From positions 1 to 61,253 of the forward strand of contig CAYNBQ010000008.1 in NCBI GenBank assembly GCA_964395275.1: a stretch of 61,253 nucleotides of DNA, written 5' to 3'. Origin of the DNA: an uncultured Verrucomicrobiota bacterium (GTDB lineage Bacteria; Verrucomicrobiota; CALLYA01; CAYNBQ01). The notes under the pieces were generated by a model, which did no database searches, was not told the DNA's origin, and was given only the letters and a program-made list of their open reading frames with translations. The number at the start of each line of letters is the position of its first letter. The first letter of the stretch is position 1. This document shows, piece by piece, positions 25,211 to 29,231 of this stretch. The position numbers and the translations under genes are program-made.

Positions 25211-26320
25211 TCAGGTCGAGAGGATTCGGCGGCTTTCGTCCAGGAAGATGCCCTGGAGATTCATGCGCAGGGCCTCGGGGTTCGAGGCGCGTGCCAGCGC
25301 GTCGTCCTCGGTGATCATCCCTTCCTGCACCAGCTTGTAGAGGGCCTGGTTGAAGGTCTGCATGCCTTCCTCGCCGCCGGTTTCGATGGCGGCCCAGAGC
25401 TTCTCCAGGCGGTTTTCCTCGATGAGCTTCCGCACCGTGGCGCTGTTGGTCATGATCTCCACGGCCGGCACGACCCCTTCGCTCGCCGCCCGGGGGACCA
25501 GGCGCTGGCAGATCACCGCCCGCAGGGTCATCGCCAGGGACATGCGGATCTGTTCGCGCTCGGCGTGCGGGAAGAAGTCCAGGATGCGGGTGACCGACTG
25601 GGAGGCGGTCGTGGTGTGAAGGGTCGTGAGCACCAGGTGCCCGGTATCCGCGGCCGCGAGGGCGGCCATGAAACTAGAGGCGTCGCGCATCTCGCCGATC
25701 ATGATGACGTCGGGATCCTGCCGCAGGATATGGGTCAACGCCGCGTCGAACGACTGGGTGTCGAGGCCGACCTCGCGCTGTTCGATCACGCTGGCCTCGT
25801 CGATGAAGAGGTATTCGATCGGATCCTCGATCGTGATGATGTGGCGTTTCTGGGTGCGGTTGATGTGCTGGATCATGGCGGCCAGCGTGGTCGACTTGCC
25901 GCAGCCGGTCGTGCCGCTGACGATGACGATTCCGCGCGGCGAAAGCGCGATTTCCATGAGCTGTTCCGGAAGGTTCAGCTCGGGGATGCTGGGGATCTCC
26001 GTCTTCACGTGTCGCATGGCCATGCAGACGGTGCCCTTCTGCATGAAGACGTTGCAGCGGAACCGGCCGATCCCGTCGAAGACGAACGAGAAGTCCGCTT
26101 CCTTGATTTCGTCGAACCGTTCCCGCAGGTGCGGAGGAAGGGCCGCTTCGGCGATGCCGTTGAGTTCCTCCTCGGTGACGATCTCGGACTCGATCGTGTA
26201 GAGGTCGCCGGAGATCCGCAACAGCAGCGGGGCGTCGGCCTTCAGATGGATGTCCGAGGCGCCCATGCGCAGGGCGAGTTTCAGAAGAGGCTGCAGTCGG
26301 GACAGAGGGTCGGTAGACAT
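25211..26320 (-). CDS. type IV pilus retraction ATPase (PilT/PilU family)
   Basis: ASDIHL, Walker A GTTGCGKST, TIEDPIE, RQDPDVIMIGEMRD, TGHLVLTTLH, GMQTF; AIRNLIRE is replaced by TVRKLIEE. Confidence 0.92.
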   Translation of the reverse strand: MSTDPLSRLQPLLKLALRMGASDIHLKADAPLLLRISGDLYTIESEIVTEEELNGIAEAALPPHLRERFDEIKEADFSFVFDGIGRFRCNVFMQKGTVCMAMRHVKTEIPSIPELNLPEQLMEIALSPRGIVIVSGTTGCGKSTTLAAMIQHINRTQKRHIITIEDPIEYLFIDEASVIEQREVGLDTQSFDAALTHILRQDPDVIMIGEMRDASSFMAALAAADTGHLVLTTLHTTTASQSVTRILDFFPHAEREQIRMSLAMTLRAVICQRLVPRAASEGVVPAVEIMTNSATVRKLIEENRLEKLWAAIETGGEEGMQTFNQALYKLVQEGMITEDDALARASNPEALRMNLQGIFLDESRRILST

Positions 26321-26670
26321 TGGGACGTCTCCCGGATGAGGTCGTAGACCTCGGGTTCCAGGTCAATGAAATACAAGGCCACCTTGTGGCCGTCGTCGAC
26401 CGGGTCGCACTGCACGACGATTCCCTGGAGATGGAGGGTGCGGGCGGGAAGATCCTTGCGCTCGTCGGGGAGGTCGACGTCGATCTGGATCATCGAATAG
26501 GGTTCGAGGCGCGTCTCCGATCGGAACTGGATGCCCAGGGGACAGAGCCGGAATCCGGTGCCCGGCTTGGGGGCGTCGGCGCCGGTGAGTTGCACATGGA
26601 CGTCCCGGAAGGGGGACTTCATCCGCTCCTGTCGGGGGGAAGGGCCTTTCGAACTGGGTTGATCGTCCAT
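26281..26670 (-). CDS. small PilZ-like beta-barrel protein with C-terminal CxxC
   Basis: LCPLGIQF, LQGIVVQC, HKVALYFIDL pattern resembles PilZ; strong promoter directly upstream. Confidence 0.6.
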   Translation of the reverse strand: MDDQPSSKGPSPRQERMKSPFRDVHVQLTGADAPKPGTGFRLCPLGIQFRSETRLEPYSMIQIDVDLPDERKDLPARTLHLQGIVVQCDPVDDGHKVALYFIDLEPEVYDLIRETSQCLPTLCPDCSLF

Positions 26671-26711: not shown

Positions 26712-26740
26712 AACCTACCGGGGCCTTTCGGCGGTGTCAA
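26712..26740 (-). promoter_or_regulatory. sigma70 promoter of the PilZ-like/pilT unit
   Basis: TTGACA-17bp-TAGGTT. Confidence 0.6.
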
Positions 26741-26757: not shown

Positions 26758-27864
26758 TCATCGGACCCGGTAGAGAAGCAGGATTCCGCCTGCGCCGAAG
26801 AGGAGATTCGGCAGCCATCCCGCGATCCACGGGGGGATCGTTCCGCTCTTGCCGAGGGCGAAGGCGGTCTGCACGGCGAAGTAGTAGACGACGACCACGC
26901 CCACGGCGGAAGCGACCCCCAGCGCCGCGCCCCGACGGTTGGTCCGCACGCCGCAGGGGATCCCGATCAGGATGACCATCAGGCAGGTCCAGGGCGAGGC
27001 GAGCCGGTAGTGCAGCATGGTGCTGGCACGCCGCCACTTGATGTCGTCGTCGCGTCCGTGCATCTCGAGATAGGAGAGCAGTTCCATCGACGAGAGTTTC
27101 TCGGGTTCGCGTTCCACGCGGATCTCGTTCAGGAAGAGGTTCGGATCCTCGGTCAGGTCCACCATCTCGCGCTTCTGGAAGGTCGGTTTGCGGCTCCTGC
27201 CCTGCACGGGCAGGCCGTTCTCGTTGTAGGGCTGGACGATCCCGTCGAAGAACCACCACCGGCCGTCGCGGTAGACGGCGGACTCGGCGCGGGCCGTCCA
27301 GACCTTCCGGCCGCTCGGATCCTCCTGGGTGACCTCGATTTCGCCGGTCTTCCCGGTTTCCGGGTCGAAATCGCGGATCAGCCAGGTTCGCCGGTCGCGC
27401 TGGTTCCGGATCCCGAGGACCTCGACCCGCCGGAAGACGGGTTCGTCGGGATGCTCGAGGGTCCGGACGAAACGCTCGGTCCTGCGCATGGTCGTCGGCA
27501 CCACCAGTTCGTTCAGCAGGAGCATCGCGATGCTGAAGAGGAATCCGACGATCAGCAGCGGCTGGGCGATCCGCACGACGCTGATCCCGCTGGAACGCAT
27601 CGCGGTGATCTCGTTGTTCCGGGCGAAGATGGCCATGCAGTAGAGGATGGCCAGCAGCAGGGCCCAGGGCATGATCACCACGGTCGTGTAGGGCAGCAGC
27701 ATGACGTAGTACCAGGCGATGTAGCCGGCCTTGATGCTGTGCTGGATGAAGTCCGGCAGGTTGTCGAAGAGATCGTAGACGACGAAGATCATGATCAGCG
27801 CCGTGATGCAGTAGAAAAACGGCACCAGGAATTCCCGTAGGACGTGTCGATCGAGGATCTTCAC
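26758..27864 (-). CDS. LPS export permease, LptF/LptG family
   Basis: MKILDRHVLREF, NEITAMRSSGIS, periplasmic jellyroll region, IPPWIAGWLPN; six-TM layout. Confidence 0.9.
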   Translation of the reverse strand: MKILDRHVLREFLVPFFYCITALIMIFVVYDLFDNLPDFIQHSIKAGYIAWYYVMLLPYTTVVIMPWALLLAILYCMAIFARNNEITAMRSSGISVVRIAQPLLIVGFLFSIAMLLLNELVVPTTMRRTERFVRTLEHPDEPVFRRVEVLGIRNQRDRRTWLIRDFDPETGKTGEIEVTQEDPSGRKVWTARAESAVYRDGRWWFFDGIVQPYNENGLPVQGRSRKPTFQKREMVDLTEDPNLFLNEIRVEREPEKLSSMELLSYLEMHGRDDDIKWRRASTMLHYRLASPWTCLMVILIGIPCGVRTNRRGAALGVASAVGVVVVYYFAVQTAFALGKSGTIPPWIAGWLPNLLFGAGGILLLYRVR

Positions 27865-28015: not shown

Positions 28016-29062
28016 CTACGGCGAAAGGGCGCTGGTGCGGTAGGTGGCCCGCTCGACGCGGCTGAACCCCTCGCGCCGGTTCAGGATGCCGAGAATGAAA
28101 CCGGGGGTCTTCTGGCTGCGGAGGTCCATTCTCCGGTTGTATTCTACGGCGATCTCGCGGTAGTGCATCGGGCGTCCCGCGTCGCGCAGGATCGAGGCGA
28201 TGATCCAGTGGGCGCTCTGGGCGGGGATGAAGAAACGGCCGTCGAGGGTACCGCTGATCTCCCGGTGGCCGCGCAGGATGCAGCCGACGAGCTTGAGCCG
28301 GTCCACGGAATCGGGAAGTCCCGCCAGGGAAGGTTCGAGTCGATCGAGGATTTCCTCGACGCGGCGCGGCGGCATCGGCTTCTGCAGCTCGCACAGCACG
28401 GCGTCTTCGACGGCGGCGAGTTCGGATTCCGGCAGGGAGCAGGCGTAGGTCTCCCGGCAGGAGATCCGGCCCGTCCACGGCACGAAGAGCCGCAGGACCG
28501 ACATCGGACGGTATCCGGCCGTTTCCTCCGCCCGGTGCAGCTGTTCGATCTCCACGCTGTCGCAGATCCCCCCGCGGGCGTCGAGCCATCCGGCGAAGAA
28601 GGCCGCGAACTCGCGGGCGAAGGCCATGCAGATCTCGCTGCGCATCCGTTCCCAGGCGGCTTCCTCGATCTGGCGGATCCGCTCCCGGGTGCGGCCGATC
28701 AGCTCGCCGATGGCCTGCAGGGTCATCGGTTCGCCCCGTTCGGCGAGGGGAAGCGCGTAGCGGTGTTCGATGACGAAGAGCATCGACGGATCGAGGAAAC
28801 GGCGGAGCAGGTCGCGCACGGAGCGGATCGTCATCCGTCCCCGCTGGATCCGGGCCGTCATCTCGAAGAACTCCCGGATCTTGCGGAGCGACGTCCGCCC
28901 GAGGCTGCGCAGGGCGAGCAGCTCCTGGTCGGACATCCGGCGCAATTCGCCGATGGTGTGGACGTGGACCCGGGCCAGGCCGTTGCAGGCGCGATGCGGC
29001 AGTCCGGCCCGATCGACGGCCCAGGAATCAATCGTTTGACGTGAGAGGTGAGGCGTCGCCAT
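28016..29062 (-). CDS. alpha-CTD-like + sigma70 region 4 + HARE/delta-like wHTH protein (348 aa)
   Basis: LPHRACNGL...TIGEL...ELLALRSLGRTSLRKI (alpha-CTD); TLQAIGELIGRTRERIRQIE (sigma r4.2); ILRDAGRPMHYREI...FSRVERATY (wHTH); ATG with AGGAG upstream. Confidence 0.8.
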   Translation of the reverse strand: MATPHLSRQTIDSWAVDRAGLPHRACNGLARVHVHTIGELRRMSDQELLALRSLGRTSLRKIREFFEMTARIQRGRMTIRSVRDLLRRFLDPSMLFVIEHRYALPLAERGEPMTLQAIGELIGRTRERIRQIEEAAWERMRSEICMAFAREFAAFFAGWLDARGGICDSVEIEQLHRAEETAGYRPMSVLRLFVPWTGRISCRETYACSLPESELAAVEDAVLCELQKPMPPRRVEEILDRLEPSLAGLPDSVDRLKLVGCILRGHREISGTLDGRFFIPAQSAHWIIASILRDAGRPMHYREIAVEYNRRMDLRSQKTPGFILGILNRREGFSRVERATYRTSALSP

Positions 29063-29202
29063 CTTCGGAAGGCTCCTCTCCGGCCGGATCCCGGCCTTTC
29101 GACTCTCTTCGAACATGGCATGGTGCCGGATCCGGCGATGCGGTGTCAAGGGTTTTGACGCGATTCCCGCGGATTTTCCTCCCGGCCGCGGCGGGCGGCG
29201 GG

Positions 29203-29231
29203 TTGACCGCCGGGAACCGGACTTCTATAAT
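29203..29231 (+). promoter_or_regulatory. near-consensus sigma70 promoter of the gap operon
   Basis: TTGACC-17bp-TATAAT. Confidence 0.8.

Follow-up and report, generated by a model that had tools for sequence, protein, structure and literature searches.

The window, meaning here the whole stretch of 61,253 nucleotides that was analysed, carries on its minus strand a gene whose product joins several RNA-polymerase-like modules. The original prediction had placed one such protein at 28016-29062, and this held: the coding sequence is intact over 348 codons and the domains were recovered from it. The features of the locus are as follows.

28016-29062, minus strand: coding sequence of the protein under study, an intact open reading frame of 348 codons plus stop, with the stop codon included.
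28853-29041, minus strand: alpha-CTD-like (HhH)2 domain, residues 8-70 (Pfam E 2e-10; fold match 1z3e_B; R24 corresponds to E. coli R265).
28637-28822, minus strand: sigma-70 region 4 (4.1 and 4.2), residues 81-142, with TRERIRQIE at 125-133 (Pfam, PDB profile, RpoD alignment, fold Z about 7).
28433-28636, minus strand: long helix and first winged helix (WH1), residues 143-210, mildly acidic (AlphaFold2 models, tandem winged-helix matches, charge).
28226-28432, minus strand: second winged helix (WH2), residues 211-279, the least conserved domain (AlphaFold2 models, conservation, fold matches).
28028-28225, minus strand: third winged helix (WH3), assigned to the HARE-HTH type, residues 280-345, basic (Pfam below cut-off, hhalign, fold Z 7.2-7.4, charge +4.3).
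29073-29080, minus strand: Shine-Dalgarno-like GAGAGGAG, read from the sequence.
29144-29149, minus strand: perfect TTGACA, 87 nt upstream of the ATG; it is probably the -35 element of the promoter that serves this gene.
26758-27864, minus strand: lptF/lptG-family permease gene, 152 nt downstream of the gene under study and on the same strand (Pfam E 5e-73).

A longer version of the reading frame (377 aa) begins at a TTG at 29149, but this TTG is part of the -35 hexamer TTGACA. The ATG at 29062 agrees with the N-termini of the closest homologues and is preceded by GAGAGGAG, and it was therefore taken as the start. The resulting protein of 348 aa has no enzymatic domain.

Pfam matched RNA_pol_A_CTD at residues 13-64 (E 2e-10, 40.7 bits against a cut-off of 23.8) and Sigma70_r4 at residues 97-141 (E 3.1e-9, 36.6 bits against 24.1). 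HARE-HTH (PF05066) was matched at residues 287-342 (E 2.5e-4) with 21.8 bits, which is under the required 25.9. Sigma regions 2 and 3 (Sigma70_r2/r3) gave no Pfam match in the protein at E<=10. When a profile of the family was compared with PDB sequences, the complete region 4 of primary sigma factors was matched (4.1 and 4.2, residues 81-154, E 4e-14), together with the alpha-CTD (E 1e-8). NCBIfam recognised only the C-terminus of alpha and the C-terminus of sigma, far under all full-length cut-offs. The domain order of the protein is alpha-CTD, sigma region 4 and three winged helices.

The identity of the last winged helix was given by homology. With Pfam, HARE-HTH reached E<=0.01 in only 2 of the 82 family members. 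The family was aligned by hhalign with P0029, a 353-aa relative containing sigma region 4 and HARE-HTH, and residues 288-346 fell on residues 232-290 of P0029 (99% probability, E 6.9e-18). This stretch of P0029 is exactly what Pfam calls HARE-HTH there (40.9 bits, over the cut-off), which is why WH3 was called HARE-type. As judged from sequence homology, WH3 is a HARE-type domain, and it was not singled out by fold comparison: against solved structures it matched many generic winged helices (Z 6-7.4, the best at 7.2-7.4), and a chain of Staphylococcus RNA polymerase, 8x6g_E, which we guess to be the delta subunit, scored lower (Z 5.9).

The whole chain was predicted by AlphaFold2 with high confidence (pLDDT 96.8, pTM 0.91, from an alignment of 82 sequences). 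The evidence on fold rests on VIA-align searches. Residues 8-70 matched alpha-CTD structures, best 1z3e_B (Z 10.4, rmsd 1.1 over 63 residues) and then 4mex_A (Z 9.6), and residues 79-158 resembled sigma region 4 (7vpd_F, Z 7.2; 4xln_F, Z 7.1). The C-terminal half, modelled alone, reached a pLDDT of 95.3 and matched tandem winged-helix arrays, namely UFL1/DDRGK1 (Z 8.2, 176 residues), SelB WH2-4, Dcc1 and Stn1. Foldseek agreed on the alpha-CTD and sigma region 4, but gave no match at E<=0.001 for the whole-chain model or the C-terminal-half model. In the AlphaFold2 model, the linker between the alpha-CTD and region 4 is about 10 residues long and the chain stops 3 residues past the last strand. 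The model points to a single rigid five-domain body rather than beads on a string.

The N-terminal domain was compared with E. coli RpoA (reference taken from NC_000913.3). BLASTP aligned residues 16-66 with RpoA 257-307 without gaps, so that R24 corresponds to R265, N27 to N268, G55 to G296 and S58 to S299. K298 is replaced by T57, and D259 and E261 by R18 and G20; K298 and the 261 determinant are lost. Residues 114-140 aligned with E. coli RpoD 572-598, where T125-E133 correspond to T583-E591 and both proteins read TRERIRQIE. The RpoD of the window genome has the same recognition helix, and its RpoA has a normal alpha-CTD. The R265, N268, G296 and S299 positions and those of TRERIRQIE are, as we take it from textbook knowledge, the UP-element and -35 contact residues.

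Conservation was followed in 82 family members, which are about 30% identical to the window protein. The equivalent of alpha R265 was kept in all 82, that of G296 in 78 and that of S299 in 69 (with threonine in 11 more). The equivalent of N268 was kept in only 50, with histidine in 21; K298 was not conserved, and the E261 position was glycine in 81. In the sigma module, the equivalents of R584 and R586 were kept in 82/82, and those of E585, R588 and Q589 in 81/82 each. The RYGL motif of region 4.1 is present, and its R101 was found in 82/82. In WH3, N309 was kept in all members and Y341 in 80. The alpha-CTD and sigma region 4 were the most conserved domains among the 82 members and WH2 the least, and the DNA-contact residues were the most conserved positions of all. 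TRERxRQ was present in 115 of the best 150 database representatives. The mean net charge over family members was +2.6 for the alpha-CTD, +2.0 for sigma region 4 and +4.3 for WH3 (never negative), and it was -1.1 for WH1 and -1.3 for WH2.

These results agree with most of what had been claimed for the protein. The original prediction had read an alpha-CTD at the N-terminus with the equivalents of R265, N268, G296 and S299 kept, a sigma-70 region 4 with an intact TRERIRQIE, a C-terminal winged helix of the HARE kind, and no sigma region 2. Profile searches recovered all three domains, HARE-HTH through profile-profile alignment with Pfam itself staying below its cut-off, and the residues named are those of the E. 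coli proteins. The count of three modules needs to be corrected, since the two middle winged helices (residues 143-279) had been overlooked; AlphaFold gave the confident fold that was looked for, as a rigid body of five domains instead of three beads.

An exhaustive HMMER search over 1.84 billion representatives gave 795 hits at E<=1e-3; 165 of them passed E<=1e-10 and 51 passed E<=1e-30. Among the best 150 representatives, 94 are 300-399 aa long, 22 are shorter and 34 are longer, and full-length matches were obtained to more than 90 representatives of 300-399 aa. Ten relatives were scanned for domains. Eight of them are 517-1878 aa long and carry 2-4 matched alpha-CTD stretches ahead of sigma region 4; in three of these eight, HARE-HTH is over the Pfam cut-off. 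One of the ten, P0142, is fused to Mrr_cat_2 (an Mrr-type nuclease), ResIII helicase and HA domains. NCBI names members either 'DNA-directed RNA polymerase subunit alpha C-terminal domain-containing protein' or 'hypothetical protein'. In the ESM Atlas, clusters with the alpha-CTD/sigma-4 pair are named hypothetical and occur most often in Verrucomicrobiota and Kiritimatiellota; longer forms come from Pseudomonadota, Bacillota and Planctomycetota.

Among 401 sampled genomes from the window's phylum, 10 gave a strong match over the full length (E<=1e-82), and 8 genomes of one family (f17) gave a more distant full-length match. In one further genome (G283) the gene lies in two pieces at two contig ends, and the apparent split was put down to an assembly break. 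The remaining matches at that threshold cover just region 4 or the alpha-CTD and presumably come from ordinary sigma factors or from proteins with an alpha-CTD. A contig scan with the sigma-helix pattern alone gave nothing on distribution, as all 62 confirmed loci among the matches listed were partial sigma region 4. No match to the protein was found in phages, and plasmids gave one partial sigma-factor match and no full-length match.

Other free-standing uses of these modules were also seen. The window genome encodes a paralogue of 208 aa (contig C19, L122, 5863-6489, minus strand) with just an alpha-CTD and a sigma region 4 (Pfam E 3.8e-7 and 8.9e-7), the helix TRERTRQLQ and no winged-helix array; from their translations, the reading frames beside it resemble folE and miaB. 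P0017-P0032 are proteins of about 440 aa in which numerous TPR repeats are combined with an alpha-CTD, and some of them are named 'DNA-directed RNA polymerase subunit alpha' by JGI.

The HARE-HTH domain was reportedly defined by Aravind and Iyer in 2012. In the literature covered by full-text searches there was no paper on the alpha-CTD/sigma-4/WH/WH/HARE architecture. These searches found no assigned function either, as had been stated before. The window protein is the short chromosomal form of an uncharacterised superfamily built from known domains. The family is large, carries generic database names only and appears never to have been studied.

Downstream of the gene and on the same strand lie the lptF/G gene, a reading frame of 129 aa without a Pfam family (26281-26670, minus strand) and a gene for a PilT-type ATPase. 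No terminator-like site was found on the minus strand of the spacer between the gene and lptF/G, and the two are possibly co-transcribed. Upstream and divergent are gap, pgk, tpi, secG and a solute-binding protein gene, followed further on by waaA and a XerC/D-type recombinase gene. The small 129-aa frame recurs in three other loci (L105, L106 and L111) at 27-37% identity, with a TTGACA in the same place; in the window this perfect TTGACA (26735-26740, minus strand) lies just past lptF/G and ahead of the small frame, with pilT following.

Among the 10 loci with a strong full-length match (window included), 8 have lptF/G on the same strand and no more than 1.6 kb away, and in six the spacing is 60-220 nt. 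It is absent near the gene in G289 and G298, the contig of the latter ending 1.7 kb downstream. The full order of pilT, small frame, lptF/G and the gene itself, divergent from gap-pgk-tpi, is kept in 4 of the 10. The head-to-head arrangement with gap had been pointed out before, and it is as described in the window; synteny with gap in relatives extends to these four loci, and lptF/G is the commoner neighbour. Between the same loci the identity of the protein is only 26-35%, compared with 56-61% for PilT, 54-57% for Pgk and 33-40% for LptF/G.

In the distant f17 clade the gene follows that of a fumarase-class lyase in the three loci looked at and is not beside lptF/G. The two frames overlap by 4 nt in two of these loci (L118, 4361-5953 and 5950-7038; L119, 4520-5953 and 5950-7017), which suggests translational coupling. 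Neighbours across loci are lptF/G, gap-pgk-tpi, IleRS-like, TrkA and fumarase-class genes, and no defence, nuclease or mobile gene was found beside any copy looked at, in the window or in the other loci examined. In this lineage the gene sits on the chromosome and is inherited vertically.

In 8 of the 10 orthologous loci the gene is preceded, at a distance of 38-135 nt, by a perfect TTGACA. As read from the printed sequences, this TTGACA often comes after A/T-rich sequence and is followed about 17 nt later by a hexamer of the TAG..T type. The gene is probably expressed from a strong sigma-A promoter, to judge from these elements. The conserved TTGACA could also be a site to which the protein itself binds, and ordinary strong expression explains it equally well. 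On both strands the window contains 5 TTGACA against 7.8 expected from shuffles, and the 3.84-Mb genome contains 242 TTGACA/TGTCAA. The hexamer may be avoided outside promoters, judged against shuffled sequence. A near-consensus sigma-70 promoter on the plus strand (TTGACC-17-TATAAT, 29203-29231, 11/12 matches) stands about 100 nt before gap, back to back with the gene's TTGACA.

At about an even chance, we infer that the protein is a DNA-binding regulator which reads -35/UP-like sites without melting DNA; DNA binding, the sequence that is read and the regulatory outcome are all deduced. The helix-turn-helix of sigma region 4 would read a TTGACA-type hexamer in the major groove with the residues of the primary sigma, and the alpha-CTD would put the arginine equivalent to R265 into a nearby minor groove. 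WH3 may supply a third contact, with WH1 and WH2 serving as spacers between sigma region 4 and this basic HARE-type domain. Since sigma regions 2 and 3 are absent, the protein is not expected to melt DNA or to hold core polymerase as a sigma factor does, and it would for this reason act as a regulator that covers or marks sites resembling the upstream half of a promoter.

The pattern of conservation is in line with this reading. Ordinary operator-specific regulators vary their recognition helices. The present family evolves fast, as the low identity of the protein between loci against that of PilT and Pgk indicates, and an invariant recognition helix in such a family argues for one universal target instead of diverging operators. 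The obvious candidate for this putative target is the consensus -35/UP architecture. The near-invariant DNA-contact residues fit a predicted reader of promoter-like DNA that is unable to melt it. Several points count against a DNA reader. K298 is lost and N268 is kept in only 50/82, the conserved sigma-4 residues could serve a conserved protein partner, and the HARE-HTH domain of delta subunits binds polymerase and not DNA.

More tentatively, the protein may be a general transcription factor of a new type, specific to the lineage. Its alpha-CTD and sigma region 4 would form a soluble reading head on a winged-helix scaffold, which would occupy consensus -35/UP promoters genome-wide and compete with the sigma-A holoenzyme or pre-mark sites for it. 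The same head may serve in other settings as the part with which defence systems sense DNA.

It is rather unlikely that the protein is instead an accessory factor bound to RNA polymerase, with sigma region 4 docked to the tip of the beta flap or elsewhere on the core, and/or with the HARE domain on the core as in delta, travelling with the polymerase or modulating it, for example as a surrogate of or competitor for sigma region 4. Such a factor would suit a region 4 that is complete, including the RYGL of 4.1 (R101 in 82/82), and closest to that of primary sigma factors; it would also suit a WH3 of the HARE type like delta, with its fold match to the Staphylococcus polymerase chain, and the housekeeping character of every genomic context. 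Pure protein docking, however, needs none of the strictest residues, which are those of the DNA-reading region 4.2 and R265. There is no delta-like acidic tail, and D259 and E261, with which the E. coli alpha-CTD contacts sigma, are lost, E261 being glycine in 81/82.

Docking of the whole protein with a 135-aa flap gave a score of 0.01 against a mark of 0.32; it was run without controls and speaks neither for nor against contact with the beta flap. The earlier suggestion that the protein could compete for the flap gained no support. As the rpoB of the window genome is assembled for no more than its first ~440 residues, the flap used in docking was taken from G001, the sole genome belonging to the same class. 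The flap tip region is identical in 5/5 flaps aligned. The partial rpoB lies at the end of contig C171 (4248 bases), and the flap part was found in none of the 226 contigs.

We consider it quite unlikely that the protein serves as an adaptor through which an unlinked partner recognises DNA, or that it reads modified DNA; it would then direct some enzyme activity or structural function to DNA that is promoter-like or modified. The longer relatives, with 2-4 alpha-CTDs, share the core of sigma region 4, winged helix and HARE, and P0142 is fused to Mrr_cat_2, ResIII helicase and HA domains. PMC12839542 mentions fusions of HARE-HTH to restriction endonucleases in conflict systems. Against this stand the loci examined, where no nuclease, methylase or defence gene lies beside the gene. 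Phages gave no match and plasmids no full-length match, and gene order is conserved across families, unlike that of an accessory island.

A dedicated local regulator of the adjacent lptF/G (outer-membrane LPS transport), instead of a general promoter reader, is very improbable. In its favour, the same-strand adjacency in 8/10 loci survives rearrangements on both flanks, with 60-220 nt between the genes in six, and waaA is nearby. Against it, the adjacency may simply be inherited gene order, the three f17 loci looked at have the gene after a fumarase-class gene, and the reader of a gene-specific operator needs no recognition helix identical to that of the primary sigma.

Promoter recognition by the alpha-CTD and sigma region 4 is textbook knowledge, but only for these modules as parts of the polymerase. 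A free-standing conserved protein that keeps the DNA-reading residues suggests that the reading head is also used outside the polymerase, and this could be a new way of controlling or marking promoters. With a large family, a confident fold and obvious point mutants, the protein is an easy and potentially rewarding target for experiments.

We compared the protein with the systems from which its modules are known. With the primary sigma factors (RpoD/SigA) it has in common the complete 4.1 and 4.2 fold and a TRERIRQIE identical to that of E. coli RpoD and of its own genome's RpoD. Regions 1.2, 2 and 3 are absent, and with them the means to recognise a -10 element and to melt DNA as well as the main surface for binding core; its region 4 has an alpha-CTD on one side and three winged helices on the other. 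A sigma factor of the sigma-70 family was rejected on the presence of region 4 without regions 2 and 3 (E<=10), and NCBIfam sigma models gave 16-31 bits against cut-offs of 240-800. With RpoA it shares the alpha-CTD fold (1z3e_B) and the equivalents of R265, G296 and S299; the N-terminal dimerisation and assembly domain of alpha is missing, and K298 and the 261 determinant are lost. RpoA itself was rejected, as only the CTD was matched (TIGR02027, 30.8 bits against a cut-off of 227.8); the true rpoA of the window genome is on contig C3.

HARE-HTH domains are found in RpoE, the delta subunit of Gram-positive RNA polymerase, and in ASXL proteins, and WH3 aligns to the cut-off-passing HARE-HTH of a relative. 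In delta the HARE-HTH is N-terminal and a long acidic tail makes up the C-terminus, whereas the predicted HARE-type domain here is C-terminal, is followed by no acidic tail and falls short of the Pfam cut-off. RpoE was rejected on the C-terminal position of this domain, just after which the chain ends at residue 348. Membership of an anti-phage defence system found no footing in the neighbours of the window and of the loci examined, which are all housekeeping genes and include no defence gene.

The closest likeness is to the uncharacterised (alpha-CTD)n/sigma-4/WH/WH/HARE proteins, whose core order the protein shares and of which it is a member, according to the AlphaFold2 models, the full-length matches and the domain scans of relatives. 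Its own subfamily is about 350 aa long, has one alpha-CTD and is chromosomal with housekeeping synteny, whereas some longer relatives have 2-4 alpha-CTDs and enzyme fusions. In initiation complexes of the PDB 3N97 family, which we take to show the alpha-CTD and sigma region 4 side by side on UP/-35 DNA, the same two modules jointly read the upstream half of the promoter. There the modules belong to the polymerase, whereas in the window protein a single chain carries both of them and no other polymerase parts accompany them.
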